A DNA stretch of 64,000 nucleotides from Nematocida ausubeli (taxonomy: Eukaryota). Location: positions 62,001 to 126,000 of the forward strand of contig NW_026515634.1 in NCBI RefSeq assembly GCF_000738915.1, read 5' to 3'. The notes under the pieces were generated by a model. It saw nothing but the letters and a program-made list of their open reading frames with translations, did not search any database and had not been told where the DNA came from. The translations under genes and the position numbers were made by a program. Below are positions 3,669-35,282 of the stretch, one piece after another (the first letter of the stretch is position 1; every line of letters starts with the position of its first letter).

Positions 3669-4757
3669 ATGCACGGGTCACAGTATATAAGACAAATCTC
3701 CATAAAGCTCAAACAATATCTAAAACAGTGTGAAGAAAGCGGCAACTTCGCCCCCTCAGCCGCAAAGAAGACAGTTCTTGATTGTCTTGTACCTTTGTCA
3801 GAGATTGTTTTAAAAAGCCCCGCCTCCTCTCATGCTGCGCAGCCATCTGATGTGATCCCAGTGGAAAGCCCATACATATACGCCTTAATTGCAGAGTATC
3901 TATGCAGTCAGAATGCTGTAGACAGCGCGCGCATCCTTCTGGAGGAGATTGATGAGATGCTTCCTGTGAAAAGCACACACGAGACAGTGTGCATCCCAAC
4001 AGTGTATCTTCCTTGGGCAGAAGAGCTGAATGCAGTTGCCCCCAGGCTAATCACAAAAAAGTCCTTAAGCTATACACAAATGACAGACATCAAAAAAAAG
4101 TGCCAGAGAATAATTAACTCGCACAAGGAGGCAGAAGCACCAACCGATCCTGTTACAAAGCTCTATGGTATTATAGAGAGCGCGCTGAAAGAAATGGACA
4201 AATGGGACAACTGTACTGAGCAGCGAAAGGATGTCTTCCAGCGCGCGATTATTGAGATCAAGGAATGTTTCTTTGAAGAGAATGAAACACTGGTCTACTT
4301 TGACGGACATATAGGCCATGTGTATTCAAAGTACACCGCGCAGTATGAAGAAATAAAGCAGGTTTTAGGCCTTTTTGTCATTCCCACCCGCCACAACGAG
4401 GTGAAGCAGCTGGTCCATGCAAAGAGAGCGTGCTTCCCAAAGAGCGGAATAACCCTTGAAACTTTCTATCACATTGGGAAGAAGATGGAGAAAATGAACA
4501 TCACGCCATATGACACGGAGGTGGAAGTTGAGTCAGCAGTTCCTCCCATTTTGTCTTTTCACTCAACCTTCTTCTGCCCAGTTCTTCGGTCGGAGTGCTC
4601 TTTTGACAATATGCCGTGTGTACTTACATGTGGGCACATAATAAGCGTAAAGGCTGTTGAAAAAATTGCGTCTTTCAAAGGTGTTATTTTTAAGTGTCCT
4701 TACTGTCCAAAGGATGTGAATGTTAAGGATGTTTTTAAGATAAAGATGACCATCTAG
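3669..4757 (+). CDS. RMD5: Rmd5/RMND5-like GID-complex degenerate RING protein
   Basis: C-terminal FHSTFFCPVL...LTCGHIIS...FKCPYCP signature; LisH-like LIAEYL near N-terminus; ATG at 3669. Confidence 0.75.
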   Translation: MHGSQYIRQISIKLKQYLKQCEESGNFAPSAAKKTVLDCLVPLSEIVLKSPASSHAAQPSDVIPVESPYIYALIAEYLCSQNAVDSARILLEEIDEMLPVKSTHETVCIPTVYLPWAEELNAVAPRLITKKSLSYTQMTDIKKKCQRIINSHKEAEAPTDPVTKLYGIIESALKEMDKWDNCTEQRKDVFQRAIIEIKECFFEENETLVYFDGHIGHVYSKYTAQYEEIKQVLGLFVIPTRHNEVKQLVHAKRACFPKSGITLETFYHIGKKMEKMNITPYDTEVEVESAVPPILSFHSTFFCPVLRSECSFDNMPCVLTCGHIISVKAVEKIASFKGVIFKCPYCPKDVNVKDVFKIKMTI

Positions 4758-5474: not shown

Positions 5475-6002
5475 ATGAAAAGCGCTTTTAGAAGTCTAGC
5501 TATAATTATAAGCATTTCTTTACTAGGATATTTTGAGCTTTCCAATGCAGCAGAGAACCATATGGAAGAGTGCATAGAGGAGTCTATTGAAGAGTATAAA
5601 GAAGTAATATGCCAATACACAGACAGCAGAATAGATGCAATGCACGCATGCATCGCAGATATAATGAAGAGTTACAAACAGATGCAGACGTCCAATCTAT
5701 GCAGCAAAATTCCAGACCCAATTAAAACCTCATTTGACCTCTTAGAGATGTTTTATGAAAGCCCTACATGCGAAATAAAGCAGATCCTTAGAGAGATGCG
5801 CAGCACACTTTGCGAGATGGAAAATATAATAGAGACAAGCGAGATAGAAGAAATATGCATAGATAAAATTAAGTATGCACACTCTGTTATACGCACAATT
5901 GGAGAGGACATATCTGAGCTGATTCAGTTCTACATAATACTGGATATAAACATAAATCGAATGCAAGAGTTTATTATGCAGGGAAGTCTTGGGTATAAAT
6001 GA
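5475..6002 (+). CDS. Hypothetical secreted protein
   Basis: 175-aa ORF with signal-peptide-like N-terminus (MKSAFRSLAIIISISLLGYFELSNA); acidic and helical. Confidence 0.65.
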   Translation: MKSAFRSLAIIISISLLGYFELSNAAENHMEECIEESIEEYKEVICQYTDSRIDAMHACIADIMKSYKQMQTSNLCSKIPDPIKTSFDLLEMFYESPTCEIKQILREMRSTLCEMENIIETSEIEEICIDKIKYAHSVIRTIGEDISELIQFYIILDININRMQEFIMQGSLGYK

Positions 6003-7428
6003 AGCCGCTAGTGATTATATACATCTATAGTGTGCACCTACTCTGACCCCATTAACATACCCCTCTATAAATTGCAGCAGACTAGCACAGGATCCACATA
6101 GTATACTGAGAATTTAATTTATAAAGTATTTCAATTTTACAAATTTGTATTGCTGCTACTCTGATCCTATTTACGAGTCACTGTCACTATTATAGGTCAA
6201 ATAAAGGTGATCTATCGATTATGAACATGAGTTATCCAAAAACCTTATTAAAGAAAGTCTTCTAGTGATAGTGCATTCTTAGTCTCTATTTTTAGGATTA
6301 GGTTGGTTATTTTAGTGAAATTAGTGTGCTTTTTTGCATGTACAATTATATTTTTATATTATTAAGCTTTCTATGTGCACTAGCATATCCACAAGAAAAA
6401 GTTCTGCTAGACTGTTTTTAGCTCAGTTTAAATTTCTTTTAGAGTTTTATTTCCCAAGAGCCTTGTGTATAGCATAAGATGGGCTATCCCAATAAATAGT
6501 TCAGAATGAATATTAGCTTCTTTGCATGTATAGAATAATTTGTTTATGTGTTAGTTTATTCAATAATATCCAACCATGCACTATAATCTGCATGTACATT
6601 GTCTATTCATTAAACTGCATTTATACAAGATTTATGTATGTATCCTATATTCCCCATCTCTAATCTACCTCTTCTGTACTATGTCTTCATTCTCCTGTCT
6701 ATGTCTTCTTATTATCCTTTCTTCTACATCTTTGCAAAAATAAACTCTACAATATTTGCACTACCATTACTGTTCAGAAGGGTTTGTTTCTTCTAAAAAA
6801 AAGATAAAGACACACGAAAATCAGAAAACTGCACTTTTTGAAGAACCACTCTCGGCAAACACTCGGCGCAATGTAGAAAGCTGAACAAACTCTGCATCAC
6901 ATGCCAGCCACATAAAGAACAAAAAGGCCATGCCCAGACATGAAAACCTATGCGTACACCTGCAAAGAACTATACACGCATACAACACATGATATACATA
7001 CACGTATATGCATAATATACACATACTACACATATGCAATATGTATGCTGATAGAGACACATCAGAAGTAGACAAGAATGTATTCCTCAAGCATGCTATG
7101 CAAGTACCAAGACACAAGCTGTCTATCTGACCTACCCATCTGCACACACCTCCCTACATCAGCAGGTCTTCCTCCAGTGCCTGCTGCACATGCCTTGTAC
7201 ACACTCTCCCACTATATTAATTTTTCGTCATATGGCCCTCCAAGATGCGTAATTTGCACATAGACTGGGCTATACATCGCAATTAAGTAAACAAACAGCA
7301 GAACATGGTCTAGAGTGCAATTAGAAGGGCCCAATACACATATTTCCCAATTTGATCATTTTTTTGGGGTATTTAAGGGACACGCACTCTCCATTTCAGA
7401 ACACCAGGAGAGCTGCATCTGTCTCACG

Positions 7429-7921
7429 GCGCAGTGCAGAGAAGAGGGCTGGCTAGGAGGTGGCAGGAGCAAGCCGGCACTAACCCTGCCGGTGGGTCGT
7501 CCACTATTATCATTCCCTTCGGGGTAGTCTATAAGGCCATATGGAGTAGCTTGGATGCCAACTTTGTCATTAGGAAATTCCGCGCATGTTCTTTTTACCT
7601 TGATGCTTGTACATTTAATATTTAGAGCCGCTGCGTTGTCTAAGCCGAAGTGGCACTGAACTATGCGTGCACTGGACTTCCCTGCTCCTGTCCTCAGCAC
7701 CGACTGGCCCTCTCCTCTGCGCGGCGCGCGCGATGGCCTGCCGTGCTGTCTGCAGCGCTCCGGCAAACAGCAGCATGCGCGGGCCGCTGGGTTCTCAGGC
7801 CAGTCGCAAGACGCCGCTCTCCCTGCATATGCAGCAGCTAACCACTACATGTGTATGCAGCGAGCGAAGATGTGCTGTGTGCAGGCAGTACATGGCGCCC
7901 GTACATGGCCGGTACACACTA
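7429..7921 (+). ncRNA. Candidate telomerase RNA
   Basis: CTAACCCT at 7480-7487 just inside a long-range helix (7434-7450/7706-7722; 7462-7471/7683-7692); crossing helices; three-way junction 7730-7807; two 3' hairpins then ACA at 7916-7918; boundaries approximate. Confidence 0.55.
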
Positions 7922-8894
7922 TTATTAATAAACAGCCGCTCCCGATCTGCCTGCTGTCTTGCTGTACTGTGTCCGCCCTTTGTGTGCTCAACTAATATTC
8001 CTTGTCCGCAAGCCTCGAATGGCTTTTTATCTTAAACTCTTTTACTGTGCTTCTAATTTTCCTTGGAGTAGTAGTGGGAATAAAATGTTTCTTTTGGTAG
8101 GCATTAGTTTTCTCTACCTCAAGGGCATGCAGTCCTTTTCTTCAAGTCAGCAATCTAAATAGATTGTGGTAAAATTCCCACTTTCAATAAACCCTGTGAC
8201 AAAAGGACATCTATGATAAATGCACTTTCCGGACGATTTCTCGTATATCAAAAACTGACTATATAATAGTTAGAATAATTCAGAAAAAAGAATATGTCCG
8301 AACCCAAGAATACAATTATCAAAAATGCATCCGGTCAAAGGCACCAAAAACATCCACAGGATTCCAATAATAAAACTCCCTGGACAACTTCACTCTCTAT
8401 TCTCGACTATTATCTCCGGACTAGCTCGTCGCCCCCTTTTGGGCACGTCATAGATGTTATCTTTTTCTTTGAGTTTTGGCTATAGACCTAGCTGCTGTGA
8501 GCGGCTCTGCTTGTTTATATGTTACTGGCTTGTGCTCTGAGTTTTTTGATCTTTATGTTACACTACTGTCATTTGTCATATTATATTTGTTTTGTAAAAT
8601 CCAATACATATTGTTAGACATCTATAAGTCTATAAGTATACAATGATAAATAATTTATAAACAGTTTAGTATGGCCATGTCTAAAATCTTAAGAATAAAT
8701 TTAGCATGTCTATTTCTGCAGACTTTAATAAATTTTAAACATCTTCAGAAATAAGTATAAAAATAAATAAAAAGAGAGCTTTTATTCTAACCAATAAAAA
8801 TCTTTCTAGTTAAAGAAGTGCCTATAAAGGCAGTCTATCGTATGTAAGGGTGTAGTCCATACGCTGCAAGTGTGGAAGCACTTTTATGCGTATT

Positions 8895-11561
8895 TTAAAG
8901 AATGCTTACAACTTTGTTAAACTTTTCAATATCATCTTCACTTCTACATATCTGGTCCTTCAGATTGTTGAGCGTTTGCATAACCCGGTTATATATACCA
9001 TTTGTATTAACAAACCATGAACATTCGTGTGTGATGTATTCAGACTCATCAATCATGCATAGGTTTCTCCTAATAAGGGCTGCATCTGGATTCTCTTCTG
9101 CACAGAGGTACACCAGCCATATAAAGTGCAGATGGGATATTATCCGATCTGCCTTAGAAGCACACCTTTTTATTATAAGCATATCAATTTCATTTGAAAG
9201 CTTCATATCCCTATTTTTAAATATGTATTGGAAAATACTTCTGTTCAATGCGCTCATTAGTAATGGATGACTGGATTCGAGTGATCTGTCGAAATAGTCC
9301 ATAAAATAGCCGATCCATGCAATGAAAACATCCATATCAGCATCTAGAATGAAGTCAAGGTAGTATTCAAGGTTTGTATGGTATGTAAAAAAAATATATC
9401 TCGGCTGGCCTAGCTGCATTCTAGGGAAGCAGCCTGGATTGTTTTTTTTAGATTCGAGCCCTGCATACACAATTGCAGGGAATAGAATTATCTGTGTGGA
9501 CGGGTTTTTTAGCTCGGTGCTTCCTAGTATGTTAGAGACAAAACGGATAATGGGATGGTTAGGAGATAGGTTTTGGGTCATGCTGTATAAAATAGAGCAA
9601 GATAATATGTCCTTTTTGTACAAAAGGTCATTGATTTTCTTCACCAGAAGGAGCCTATTGATCTCAGAAAAGTTGCTTTGGACAACTTTGCGAACCTGTT
9701 CTTTAATCAACACTATATTATTGTTACGAGTGTCAATATTTCTTATTTCATAGTTAATGTATGTAGTAAACAGATTTTCAATAAACGCAGTATCATTTTT
9801 AGATTTGTCAGCTATTTCATTCATTTTCTCCATTCGATCATCCTTGAACATCATAACAGCGGGACTCATGCCAATACTGCTATGATTTTCAGATATATCC
9901 AAGACTATCGTGTTCTTAATATTGTTATGCTCAAATATGATAGTGATGCAGCCAGATATGTCATATCTCCCATTATGATATTCATCAATTGAAAGGTCAG
10001 CAAATTCTATCTCTATATTACTTGTCTTGGATAGACGTTTAAGCAGTTCTTCGGCGTACTCTTTAATGTCATCACATAATTCATTGTCCAGCTCTCCCTC
10101 TTTTTCCTTTAAACTCTGTGCAAAGCCAAGTATCTTTTTCTTTTCTTCTTTAGAAATATTTACTATTTCAGCAATAACCAAGAGCATGTTTATAAGACCG
10201 CAGTCTAGCTCGTTTCTATCCCTGCAGTATGCAATTCTAGGCTCGTCTAAGCACGCAACAACATTGCACCACCTTATCTGGAACTCTGCCTTTGTTGTGT
10301 CGAATGACTTGTTCTCTTCGGGAGCGAAGAATTCTTTCAGACTTTCAGAGACATTCCCCATATGATCAGTTTTATATGTGAAGTCAGATGGGTCATAGGC
10401 AAGGCAGCAAAAGAGAGAAAGAATCATGCACTCTACACAGTTGCTGTACTTCTCTAAATTTTCAGTAGAGAATGCTTTTGTTTTTGGGTCGCGCATAGGA
10501 ACAGATGTGTATGCAGGGATCTGTGTACTGTCTATAAATGGGAAGACTCGATACTTATTTAAAATCTCTTGAGTTTCTTTCATTAAGGCCATAGAAACTG
10601 TGTCTGTTTCTGTACTGGTAGGCTTAAACAGTCTGTCATACACACAGCCACCTTTACTTGGTGATTCTGTGTGTGGAGCATATTTCTCTGTCATTTCGTG
10701 CACTGTCTGAATAAACTCTTTTGCCCGCTGTGCAGTGTCTATAAACCCAAATATGTACGATTGGATCAGAAACTTAGGACTGTCCAGAAACTTTCCTGTA
10801 GAAAACTCATCCAGTGAGCACTTGTCTACCATCATGCTAAGTACTTCATGATTGGTTGCATTCTTCTGGAAGAAAATGATCATTTGCTTAACTTTCTTCT
10901 GTTGGAATGTTTGTACTTTGTCTTCCACAGGGTTTAGCCATGGAATTTCCATGGGCACTTCGAAGTATATTTCATCTTTTTTGCTTGGTTCATAGACCTT
11001 CAGTACAGTGTTACTGACTTTAATGGGAATATTCACTCCCTCAGAAAAAAGAAGCAGCATAGCCAGAATCTGTAATGCATGCTTCTCTGTTGTCTTTGCT
11101 CGCAAAAACTGAATGAAGGACTGGTTACCTCGTGTCTCTATAGTTATGTCACCAGTTGGAGATGGAAACAGCTCAATCAGATGATTATGGTACTTTTCAG
11201 CGTATTCATCCATTTTATTGTCTGTTAGTGCTTTGTATGCGGCATCTTGGTTTTCATTTCTGGCAAACACACAGATATCATATGGGCTAGCAGCCTTTGG
11301 GTCTTCCTTTACATTATAGTCTATATCTATCTGCGGTGCAAAAAATCTTTTGTTGTACATATACTCCATTTTTTGGTAGATGTATCCCCGAAGGAAGTTA
11401 AGAGGGCCCTCAGGATTTATTCTTATAGGTGTTGCATCTGCTGCAATTTCAAACTGCAGAGCGGCCTCCACTTCATCCAATGTCATGTCTGCTCTAGATA
11501 TATTCATCATTAGAACACTGATTAAGGCAACTGCCTTGATCCAAATAACCGAAAAAATCAT
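8895..11561 (-). CDS. Nematocida large-gene-family-type secreted protein (~888 aa)
   Basis: Signal peptide from ATG 11561 (MIFSVIWIKAVALISVLMMNISRA); shares motifs GPLN, KRFF.P.I, LFPS..G, LLL.SEG, LFCCLAYDP with 47391-50123. Confidence 0.8.
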   Translation of the reverse strand: MIFSVIWIKAVALISVLMMNISRADMTLDEVEAALQFEIAADATPIRINPEGPLNFLRGYIYQKMEYMYNKRFFAPQIDIDYNVKEDPKAASPYDICVFARNENQDAAYKALTDNKMDEYAEKYHNHLIELFPSPTGDITIETRGNQSFIQFLRAKTTEKHALQILAMLLLFSEGVNIPIKVSNTVLKVYEPSKKDEIYFEVPMEIPWLNPVEDKVQTFQQKKVKQMIIFFQKNATNHEVLSMMVDKCSLDEFSTGKFLDSPKFLIQSYIFGFIDTAQRAKEFIQTVHEMTEKYAPHTESPSKGGCVYDRLFKPTSTETDTVSMALMKETQEILNKYRVFPFIDSTQIPAYTSVPMRDPKTKAFSTENLEKYSNCVECMILSLFCCLAYDPSDFTYKTDHMGNVSESLKEFFAPEENKSFDTTKAEFQIRWCNVVACLDEPRIAYCRDRNELDCGLINMLLVIAEIVNISKEEKKKILGFAQSLKEKEGELDNELCDDIKEYAEELLKRLSKTSNIEIEFADLSIDEYHNGRYDISGCITIIFEHNNIKNTIVLDISENHSSIGMSPAVMMFKDDRMEKMNEIADKSKNDTAFIENLFTTYINYEIRNIDTRNNNIVLIKEQVRKVVQSNFSEINRLLLVKKINDLLYKKDILSCSILYSMTQNLSPNHPIIRFVSNILGSTELKNPSTQIILFPAIVYAGLESKKNNPGCFPRMQLGQPRYIFFTYHTNLEYYLDFILDADMDVFIAWIGYFMDYFDRSLESSHPLLMSALNRSIFQYIFKNRDMKLSNEIDMLIIKRCASKADRIISHLHFIWLVYLCAEENPDAALIRRNLCMIDESEYITHECSWFVNTNGIYNRVMQTLNNLKDQICRSEDDIEKFNKVVSIL

Positions 11562-12148
11562 TTTATAAATAGAATAAATTATTTTCAATATATATATTAA
11601 CGGATAGATGTAAGGGGTACAAGTTATTTGCTTATTGATCCACCAGCTGTATGTATTAATCAACAGTTTTTATTAAAAATTGTCCAGTATAACCCGAAAT
11701 ATCCATGAGTATTTAAATCATGATTGGTAAAACATTTAATTAGTCAGCGCTGCACCAGTAAATGATCTACTCTCTAAGGTCCAATCATAGAATCTCTAAG
11801 CGATCCAATCGAATAACCAGAAGTAGTTTGTTATCCTGCAGAAAATTAAAAGCTTAAATATACTCATGCATTACAAGTAAATTTTATATAAGAAAAGAGC
11901 AGCTCCATAAGGATTTACTCGCTTAAATATAAACCTGGCTAGCCAGAAAAAATATTCTGCTAGGAGCTGGATTATATTTTATCTATAGCGCGTATGGGGA
12001 GAAAGGGCCTAATACAAGGGAATAAATATAAAAGCAGACCGGGTGCACACTAATGCTTCTTTATTATTTTCTGCTTTATGTTTTCTGTATACTCGCATGA
12101 AGACTTGAGTATACGTGTCTATTCTTTTCCTATATGCACACGAGCTCG

Positions 12149-19084: not shown

Positions 19085-19190
19085 TAAAAAGAAAAAATTT
19101 CTGGGAGTGAATAAAGTAGAAAATGATTTGCTGATTCTATGGGGTAGAAATAGGAGAAAAAGTATAAATAGAAATGCAAATAAAGAAATC

Positions 19191-19988
19191 ATGCCAATAC
19201 AAGGAGGAGAATTAAATTACAACAAAGAAGAAAATAAGAAACCAGTAGATGACAAATCTAAGACTGACGACAAGTCCAAAGTCGATGACAAGTCCAAGAC
19301 TGGCGACAAGCCTAAGGTCGATGACAAGTCTAAGACCGGCGACAAGCCTAAGGTCGATGACAAGTCTAAGACTGAAGACAAGCCTAAGGTTGACGACAAA
19401 TCCAAGGTGGATGACAAGTCTAAGCTAGGCAAAGATGCAGCAGGTGCCACTGGAATATCATCTGCTACTGAGAAAAAGATAGACTCGCTTCTGCCAAAGA
19501 CACAGCCAACAAAGCCATCAGACGAGAAGCTTGAGTCCAGCAAGATTACGGATGCCACCAAAGCAACAGGAAGCATAGGCTCATCAAAGCCTAGCGATTC
19601 CAAAGGTCCCAGCGTGCCACCAAAGACTGGAGCAACAGGTCTTCCAAAGATGCCAATGGGTGCAGCAGGACCCACCACCAAGCCCCCAGGATCAGCCCCC
19701 TCGGGAAACGCACCGACCAGCACCAAGCCTCTCGCACCTGGTGCCAAAGGACCAGCCGGACAGCCAAGCAAGCCTTCAACTGGCTCAAAAGAAACTGGTG
19801 CTGCTGCATCATCATTGTCTGGTAGCTCGGCTCCAAGAAACCCAGAGAGCTCTCTTAATCGGGGCGCAATTGACTCCACCCAGGAGGATGACGAGTCTAA
19901 TGCTATCGTGCGGTTCTTCAGAAAGATCAAAAACGCTATTGCTGGCTTCTGCTGCCAAACCGAGGACAACATAAGACACGTGGCTTAA
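19191..19988 (+). CDS. Low-complexity repeat protein with C-terminal amphipathic helix and CC
   Basis: ATG at 19191; DDKSKT/GDKPKV repeats; Pro/Gly/Ser/Thr-rich middle; IVRFFRKIKNAIAGFCC. Confidence 0.75.
   Translation: MPIQGGELNYNKEENKKPVDDKSKTDDKSKVDDKSKTGDKPKVDDKSKTGDKPKVDDKSKTEDKPKVDDKSKVDDKSKLGKDAAGATGISSATEKKIDSLLPKTQPTKPSDEKLESSKITDATKATGSIGSSKPSDSKGPSVPPKTGATGLPKMPMGAAGPTTKPPGSAPSGNAPTSTKPLAPGAKGPAGQPSKPSTGSKETGAAASSLSGSSAPRNPESSLNRGAIDSTQEDDESNAIVRFFRKIKNAIAGFCCQTEDNIRHVA
19245..19425 (+). repeat. Coding tandem repeat, 18-bp subunits in a 36-bp period
   Basis: Repeated gtcgatgacaagtc(c/t)aagac(t/c)ggcgacaagcctaag encoding VDDKSKTGDKPK. Confidence 0.85.
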
Positions 19989-29362: not shown

Positions 29363-29590
29363 GCAGGTAGGTGGAAGCTTTCGATAGAGGTAGAAATATC
29401 TTTAGGAAGGTCTGAGAGTAGCCAAGCACAGATTGAAATGATCAAAGGGAAACCTTACGTGGCAGCTGACCAGAAATAGTTCCTGTTCTAGTAACAGTTG
29501 AGATGGCTGCTGCTAGCCGGATAGTCAAATCGAAAGGTGGGCCAATGTGTACGTCCATAACTTAATTCAGACTACTCTCCACATACCTGT
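29363..29590 (+). ncRNA. RPR1: Nuclear RNase P RNA
   Basis: CR-I GGAAGGTCTGAG at 29405-29416 and CR-V ATAACTTAATTCAGACTACTCTCC at 29557-29580 (P4 GTCTGA/TCAGAC); P1 CAGGTAGGTGGA / TCCACATACCTG; T-rich 3' flank. Confidence 0.9.
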
Positions 29591-35211: not shown

Positions 35212-35282
35212 TGGTCCTACCGAGAATCGAACTCGGGTTACGGGATTCAAAGTCCCGGGTGCTACCGCTACACCATAGGACC
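35212..35282 (-). tRNA. tRNA-Gln (anticodon TTG)
   Basis: Cloverleaf GGTCCTA TG GTGT-AGCGGTA-GCAC C CGGGA-CTTTGAA-TCCCG TAAC CCGAG-TTCGATT-CTCGG TAGGACC A; TTTT just downstream. Confidence 0.97.

Follow-up and report, generated by a model that had tools for sequence, protein, structure and literature searches.

Genomic context of the island

The analysed window is a 64-kb stretch (64,000 nucleotides) of Nematocida ausubeli or a very near form. The proteins flanking the island are 91% and 99% identical to N. ausubeli proteins, while identity is 71% to N. parisii and 51% to N. minor and N. major. The island is situated in a 2.9-kb gap between a lineage-specific gene (5475-6002, + strand) and an 888-codon gene (8895-11561, - strand) without Pfam match. 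A PKC-like kinase and a RING gene (3669-4757) are found upstream and NPL4, DnaJ and Sec62 downstream. The gene at 5475-6002 is fast evolving. It has a single homologue cluster with 91% identity, shows no Pfam match and lacks a counterpart in the RING-NPL4 gap of L001, a distant relative analyzed below. Among all 300-nt windows of the stretch, GC content above 54% was found only in 7501-8000 and 19501-19900. The first-pass annotation described the island as GC-rich; its central core, 7500-7699, has only 46% GC. The second GC-rich stretch, 19501-19900, falls within an ORF (19191-19988) without Pfam match. Upstream of the island, a low-depth contig of run X13 with 5% divergence lies on an AT-rich low-complexity stretch (6656-7117).

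Transcribed unit

Contigs of 8 of the 21 listed sequencing runs were compared with the window. Discrete contigs with bare flanks were found on the island in all four of the runs X13, X14, X16 and X20. They extend over 7403-7945 in X14, 7410-7944 in X16, 7414-7917 in X13 and 7535-7889 in X20. The first three runs represent one sample, two of them guessed to be RNA and one of unrecorded kind, and X20 is on record as rRNA-depleted RNA. In X13, X14 and X16, several hundred bases are uncovered on each side, except for short or low-depth pieces which partly fit elsewhere. No contig of run X21 was placed on the stretch. The contigs outline a unit of about 540 nt (7403-7945, probably + strand) without credible ORF, so that at the contig level the island possesses a discrete non-coding transcript, as expected of a telomerase RNA. 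The feature is larger than the 7429-7921 first proposed, both in these contigs and in the near-invariant zone 7392-8051. Contigs cannot reveal strand, true ends or level; contig depth was 300-460 compared with 10-15 for the neighbouring gene, depth being a poor measure of level. Two ORFs of 110 and 100 codons (starts 7663 and 7733) were rejected, as both extend beyond the contig ends; the former has no Pfam match.

A TATA-like word, GGGGTATTTAAGGG, is present at 7366-7379 (+), with the 5' ends of the contigs 24-35 nt further downstream, and may act as promoter. It is flanked by listed polymorphic sites at 7365 and 7380. An AATAAA at 7927-7932 (+) is positioned 12-13 nt before two contig ends and may direct polyadenylation. 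The TATTTAA at 7370 and AATAAA at 7927 reported earlier are therefore present, and both words are common on the + strand of the window, with 14 and 92 copies, respectively. The word GGGGTATTTAA has one copy in the 64-kb window and two in L001 gaps. These two copies (7148-7164 and 19114-19125) are in gaps without long downstream ORF and may mark unannotated small genes or RNAs. The + strand is favoured because the TATA word lies 24-35 nt upstream, AATAAA is near two ends and the variant C7720T retains its pair on this strand alone, as G-U. The folding z score of 7429-7730 was -3.3 on + (0 of 100 shuffles as good) and -2.7 on - (1 of 100). For the whole unit, 7403-7945, it was just -2.0 (306 shuffles).

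Conservation within the species and in a second genome

The zone 7392-8051 (660 nt) is nearly invariant between haplotypes, while the flanks differ by 8-17%. A 671-nt haplotype contig (7381-8051) shows 2 differences and a 735-nt contig (7317-8051) shows 7, of which 5 are before 7392. Flanking pieces taken for comparison show 13 differences in 140 nt and 17 in 170 nt. Only 2 of the 40 listed variant sites fall in 7392-8051, which represents 44% of the stretch concerned; as 40 of 88 variant sites were listed, the full-length contigs provide the unbiased count. Loss of heterozygosity along a tract is an improbable explanation, given that polymorphisms occur in these same runs within 10 nt to either side. 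The zone is under strong purifying selection. Further downstream, at 8190-8236, haplotypes with 9 bases in place of 45 were observed in three runs.

In runs X3 and X2, one contig of a second genome matches 7591-7641 and then 7993-8041, and very deep contigs of run X7 lie on the same two blocks. This contig shows the pseudoknot block and not the template region. Its 30-letter loose end fits 7561-7590 by eye, with most of 7569-7590 kept; ATTAGG, AATTC and CGCATGTT are shared, and one base is inserted before 7591. Hairpin B, described below, is retained. Two substitutions, C7568 to U (opposite G7605) and G7582 to A (opposite U7668), fit pairs if the partner strands are unchanged, position 7668 being outside the visible part. 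The distal block (block II, 7993-8041, strand not assigned) is kept in the second genome, lies beyond the RNA-type contig ends and has no Rfam match. It could be a separate small RNA, part of a longer precursor or a DNA element. An exact U17 m1 word occurs in it, as does a short hairpin with a U-run behind it.

Predicted secondary structure

The predicted core is enclosed by two long-range helices. The P1a-like outer helix pairs 7429-7452 (+) with 7704-7727 (probabilities 0.88-0.99), and its segment 7434-7450/7706-7722 has 16 of 17 positions paired including 2 G-U, as had been proposed. The P1b-like inner helix pairs 7462-7471 (+) with 7683-7692 in 10 of 10 positions (probability 0.90), likewise in agreement with the first proposal, and is placed 8 nt before the template. 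The 3' strands of both helices together occupy 7683-7727 (+), assigned on complementarity and pair probabilities. Template and pseudoknot are thus surrounded by a core-enclosing helix, and two X20 variants in P1 support it: C7720T changes G-C to G-U and G7723T changes an A.G mismatch to A-U. Altogether 5 variants were seen within the species; these 2 favour P1, and the other 3 disrupt pairs predicted in weaker helices.

Crossing helices with the complementarity of a pseudoknot were found 3' of the template. The P2a-like strand 7549-7557 (+) pairs with 7637-7645 (9 bp, -9.5 kcal/mol), extending the 7 of 7 pairs of 7549-7555/7639-7645 noted before. Hairpin B (7568-7605, +) has a P2b-like stem (7568-74/7598-7605) and a loop composed of UUC, the P3-like 5' strand GCAUGUUC (7584-7591) and a U-run (7592-7596). 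It is weak by itself, with -3.1 kcal/mol when the loop is held open. Hairpin A (7649-7673, +; -5.8 kcal/mol) presents in its loop the P3-like 3' strand GAAC-U-AUGC (7658-7666) with a bulged U7662. The second pseudoknot helix of the first-pass annotation was recovered as 7581-91/7658-69, an 11-bp duplex with the bulged U7662 and -12.6 kcal/mol. The pseudoknot frame with P3 amounts to -116 kcal/mol versus -119 for the free fold of the window, loop penalties being uncounted. The U-run follows the P3-like 5' strand instead of preceding it and is, as cautioned earlier, off the canonical triple-helix position. Ahead of the P3 5' strand, UUC is all that three genomes have in common, and the U5 run after the strand is UGUGU in L001.

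The core is followed by a long hairpin (7735-7785, +; probabilities 0.96-0.99) and a three-way domain (7799-7910, +), a possible stand-in for CR4/5, whose arm 7823-7860 is capped by the loop CUAACCA. P6.1 (a 4-bp stem with NUNGN loop) is absent from this 3' domain; across 7403-8060 it matches a single place, 7492-7504, within the core. No Sm-site word was found in the unit. The arm loop, 7838-7844, is identical to the template loop in 6 of 7 positions.

Candidate template

The candidate template CUAACCCU (7480-7487, +) is composed of a 6-nt TTAGGG unit and a 2-nt alignment part. The 8-mer CTAACCCT at 7480, identical to the mouse telomerase RNA template, occurs a single time on both strands of the 64 kb, in line with the earlier claim. 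Three further permuted 8-mer matches (15585, 15586 and 29246) are all within ORFs. A TTAGGG template of at least 8 nt arose by chance in 2.1% of 20,000 transcript shuffles, and the 8-mer alone is modest evidence. Within the species it is free of variants in the haplotype contigs. On rodents, PMC4993307 states only that some have a 2-nt alignment region.

The template forms the loop of a 7-bp hairpin (7473-7493, +). The first-pass annotation mentioned a local hairpin as a caveat, and this proved stronger than stated: the stem 7473-79/7487-93 has a probability of 0.97 and its opening costs 12.6 kcal/mol. In the protein-free fold the template is unpaired just as a 7-nt loop, and 12-14 kcal/mol are needed for the open fold. 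With an alternative helix, 7489-94/7670-75, the template would lie in an open internal loop. The block 3' of the template (7491-7511, +; GGUGGGU ... CUAUUAUC) is common to L001, with a tile p of 0.29 that is not significant alone. Two CTAACC copies in the transcript were obtained in 0.35% of shuffles and a shared loop word of at least 6 in 4 of 306; chance accounts for the second CUAACC loop no better than for the template itself.

A syntenic element in a distant relative

L001 is a metagenome contig with an orthologue of the RING gene and the same gene order over 7 of the 17 window proteins tested. Its syntenic RING-NPL4 gap is 570 nt long, and the putative homologue (11109-11684, - strand) fills it completely. 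It lies on the strand of NPL4 and begins at the stop codon of that gene, so processing of the NPL4 transcript might release it. The two longest words shared by the island and the minus strand of L001, GCATGTTCT and GAACTATGC, are both P3-like strands, bulged U included, and each is exact and unique in 21 kb of L001. Sharing of a 9-mer is itself common (14.6% of shuffles), while two shared words forming 8 Watson-Crick pairs were found in 26 of 22,769 shuffles (p about 0.001; this null names no helix). The P3-like helix was the sole helix kept of 7 tested, was matched in 0 of 3000 shuffles, and 7 other L001 gaps scored 5 or less. A looser null of shared-8-mer duplexes, which truncates the bulged helix, was not significant (18,886 of 43,002).

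Each P3-like strand lies in a hairpin loop in both species. Hairpin B of L001 (11208-11167) keeps GG/CC and the loop length (23 and 22 nt in the two species) and has a 10-bp stem of other letters. Hairpin A retains the identical 9-mer and the upstream AGUGG. Eight bases after the A strand is the word CTAAACCT, identical to the window 8-mer in 7 of 8 positions. At the place matching the template, CUAAACCU has a 6-nt unit and a 2-nt repeat, for TTTAGG, and is followed by the GGTGGGT...CTATTATC block as in the window. In 0.7% of shuffles, a template-like word whose CU ends are repeated appeared no more than 50 nt from the matching block. In this putative distant homologue the candidate template would not be strictly invariant (7/8). 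The template-like word of L001 is partly paired, and neither the template hairpin nor the P2a-like helix is kept there. Base pairing joins the two ends of the gap (probability 0.98), and the pseudoknot frame with P3 amounts to -198 kcal/mol versus -194 for the free fold, loop penalties being uncounted.

No match to the L001 gap was obtained by nhmmer or whole-island local alignment. Tile alignment gave 0 of 32 tiles with p<0.05 on the minus strand and 3 of 32 on the plus strand, with a chain score of 11 of 948. A covariance model built from the single window sequence reached at best E 0.65 in the gap, and the gap has a folding z score of -1.2. The L001 blocks were chosen after inspection, and no tile is significant alone. 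The island and the gap element are very probably homologous. Their cyclic order of A, template, block and B is the same; the closing helix alone sits in a different place, so that the two would be related by circular permutation. A CTATGC at 11155 of L001 allows the canonical order and pairs with -3.8 versus -10.4 kcal/mol.

Other candidate relatives were rejected. L001 7148-7549, with the same TATA word and a CTAACCC 88 nt later, has a z score of 0.16 and chance-level alignment and is not syntenic. L002, from the flanking-gene alignment to viral contigs, is an unrelated RING match. Motif scans gave 0 matches in metagenome contigs, with a pattern that fits the window-like form only and not the one-base insertion of the second genome, and 0 in viral contigs. 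Flanking-gene alignment found no relative among prokaryote genomes. Separately, window 7631-7642 and L001 11335-11346 (+) each agree with the Rfam snoR27 guide in 11 of 12 positions. The snoR27 model itself gave no match in the window, where a D' box at the right place is missing, and E 1.2 in L001.

Comparison with known telomerase RNAs

With P6.1 absent, the island is not placed in the CR4/5-type subtype of vertebrates and Pezizomycotina. Human telomerase RNA has a bulged U in the 3' strand of P3 and an 8-nt linker between P1b and the template, both like the island. According to the available part of PMC4993307, vertebrate RNAs also have a similar size range and, in some rodents, the 2-nt alignment region; in them a distant P1 helix defines the boundary by way of a single-stranded linker, as is proposed for the island. 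Unlike them, the island is devoid of an H/ACA domain (an H-like ACACUA stands at 7916, with no hairpin-ACA after it) and of P6.1, its U-run flanks the P3 5' strand on the opposite side, and its template is in a local hairpin (PMC4993307).

As far as the accessible text of PMC3592445 describes the filamentous ascomycete and fission yeast RNAs (Neurospora crassa TER), the shared features are a TTAGGG template (a candidate one in the island) inside core-enclosing helices, a two-helix pseudoknot 3' of the template and a three-way domain further 3'. In contrast, N. crassa TER has 2049 nt against about 540 nt here, where the template is 8 nt. The island also lacks a template-adjacent 5' boundary hairpin and a 4-bp/NUNGN P6.1, has about 6 unpaired bases at the pseudoknot junction and could not use spliceosomal 3' cleavage (PMC3592445). 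A three-way domain without P6.1 is described for budding yeast and echinoderms in the available parts of PMC3592445 and PMC4993307, and unpaired pseudoknot-junction bases for budding yeast (PMC3592445). Compared with yeast TER, the island is far shorter, has no Sm site and carries a short canonical template (PMC3592445, PMC4993307, each in part).

Telomerase RNA as the likely identity

The island is a real conserved structured non-coding RNA, and it is likely the telomerase RNA of this N. ausubeli-like microsporidian. The telomerase reading of the first-pass annotation gains from the transcript unit, the selection, the kept P3-like helix and the absence of a competing Rfam family, and loses from the missing P6.1 and the 7/8 template in L001. 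Rfam telomerase models gave no match on the island at E up to 10, which speaks against it; no rival family such as RNase MRP matched either. The high depth of 300-460 for a telomerase RNA, the template locked in a hairpin in silico and the unexplained second CUAACC loop also speak against it. Further points against it are that no Nematocida telomere repeat turned up in the literature examined and that, among Nematocida, TERT was found annotated for N. ferruginous alone.

The available parts of PMC4435813 and PMC3514677 describe Nematocida as basal and as having lost splicing, with U2 and U6 reported missing and UTRs reported very short. In the proposed mechanism, RNA polymerase II would start about 30 nt below the TATA word and terminate past AATAAA; as splicing has been lost in the genus, spliceosomal cleavage would play no part. 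Since an Sm site and an H/ACA end are also missing, a plain polyadenylated end is the simplest reading. The P1-like helices, given their complementarity, would close a 300-nt core, and TERT binding may open the local template hairpin. The 3' CU of CUAACCCU would align the chromosome end and six bases would be copied, giving TTAGGG repeats, with the P1b-like helix 8 nt upstream presumably setting the boundary. Complementarity and cross-species conservation suggest that GCAUGUUC in hairpin B pairs with GAAC-U-AUGC in a pseudoknot or loop-loop helix equivalent to P3. The conserved UUC may supply base triples and the 3' three-way domain may replace CR4/5 without P6.1.

A wider reading is offered tentatively, with somewhat more doubt than trust: the microsporidian telomerase RNA would be a compact RNA built on a kissing P3 helix, matured without spliceosome, Sm or H/ACA, and naturally circularly permuted within Nematocida. 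In this joint reading, the N. ausubeli-like order would be template, B, A inside P1 and that of L001 would be A, template, B. The ends in L001 might have moved into a variable pseudoknot loop, and the one-base template change would predict TTTAGG telomeres. Engineered circular permutants of yeast telomerase RNA are reportedly functional.

Alternative explanations

An unlikely alternative, though the one which survives best, is a new structured non-coding RNA unrelated to telomerase, a conserved loop-loop scaffold whose two CUAACC loops bind a protein. CUAACC is presumably a branch-point or STAR-type word. The two 7-nt hairpin loops, CUAACCC and CUAACCA, are in the same register (two CTAACC in 0.35% of shuffles), a stable stem closes the first, and the contig depth is high. 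In either species the two conserved strands are also presented by hairpin loops, which differs from the H-type pseudoknot that known telomerase RNAs form. At the corresponding place, however, L001 reads CUAAAC, a change that destroys the CUAAC word and preserves the template logic, and no CTAACC is found on that strand of its gap. Under this reading the microsporidian telomerase RNA would also still be missing, although the genus possesses TERT.

A diverged pre-rRNA processing RNA, of snR30/U17-like or RNase MRP-like type or a snoRNA cluster, is improbable. The helix with the bulged U resembles P4 of RNase P/MRP, and the strand order in L001 is that of P4. No CR-V word is found, however, and a 220-nt tail follows P1. 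The stretch 7631-7642 matches the Rfam snoR27 guide consensus in 11 of 12 positions, and no Rfam match at E up to 10 was obtained on four stretches of the island; by contrast, the nuclear RNase P RNA of this genome, elsewhere in the window (29366-29587, +; RF00009), scores 72.9 bits. The window also carries a tRNA gene at 35212-35282 (-). The snR30/U17 version is taken seriously because block II has an exact m1: AUAUUCCUU at 7995-8003, near the 3' end of the 660-nt zone, is the 9-nt m1 motif of C. elegans U17, and the length of the zone is close to the 606 nt of yeast snR30, as given in the available text of PMC7601244. Against this, m2 reads AAACUCU in place of the AAACCAU of all 14 species listed there (PMC7601244), no ACA, required 7 nt after m2 according to the accessible part of PMC2664660, is present in 7935-8198, no basal stem is found, and block II is outside the RNA-type contigs.

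An mRNA for a 34-codon peptide (7555-7659) with structured untranslated ends is highly improbable: the TATA word and AATAAA bracket the unit, depth is high and 2 of 4 loose-end substitutions in the second genome are silent (by eye), but the one-base insertion before 7591 shifts the frame (by eye), L001 differs by one base in the same loop, the ORF has no Pfam match, and the leader of 150 nt and the trailer of 285 nt vary no more than the ORF does, in a genus with reportedly very short UTRs.

Telomere repeats and TERT in microsporidia

Returning to the telomerase RNA reading, the available parts of four sources (PMC12449221, PMC10542269, PMC13174016, PMC11592040) report TTAGGG for the outgroup Mitosporidium (one contig), Hamiltosporidium, Binucleata and Gurleya, TTAGG for Encephalitozoon, Ordospora, Vairimorpha and Nosema, and TTAG or TAGG elsewhere in microsporidia. 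Since Nematocida is basal and the outgroup has TTAGGG, this repeat is a parsimonious guess for Nematocida, not an observation. No Nematocida telomere repeat was found in the text of 10.64898/2026.01.30.702766 or in the text and 23 supplements of PMC10393165. The first-pass annotation was aware of no characterised microsporidian telomerase RNA, and none turned up in the literature searched on telomerase RNA with microsporidia or Encephalitozoon, from which most subscription journals are missing. In the accessible portions, a survey of 18 Encephalitozoon ncRNAs nowhere names telomerase (PMC5499648) and an Encephalitozoon telomere inventory contains TERT only (PMC10158259).

If the reading is true, the island provides a seed telomerase RNA for a group in which the repeat shifts from TTAGGG to TTAGG, TAGG and TTAG, and this shift becomes testable at the template. 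It would show how, once splicing is lost, a fungal-lineage telomerase RNA matures, and a circular permutation arisen in nature would reveal the core connections that are fixed. As a laboratory system, Nematocida in C. elegans is tractable. In a supplementary table with TERT on six sheets (numbering to 11), TERT is annotated in three N. ferruginous genomes and for no other Nematocida.
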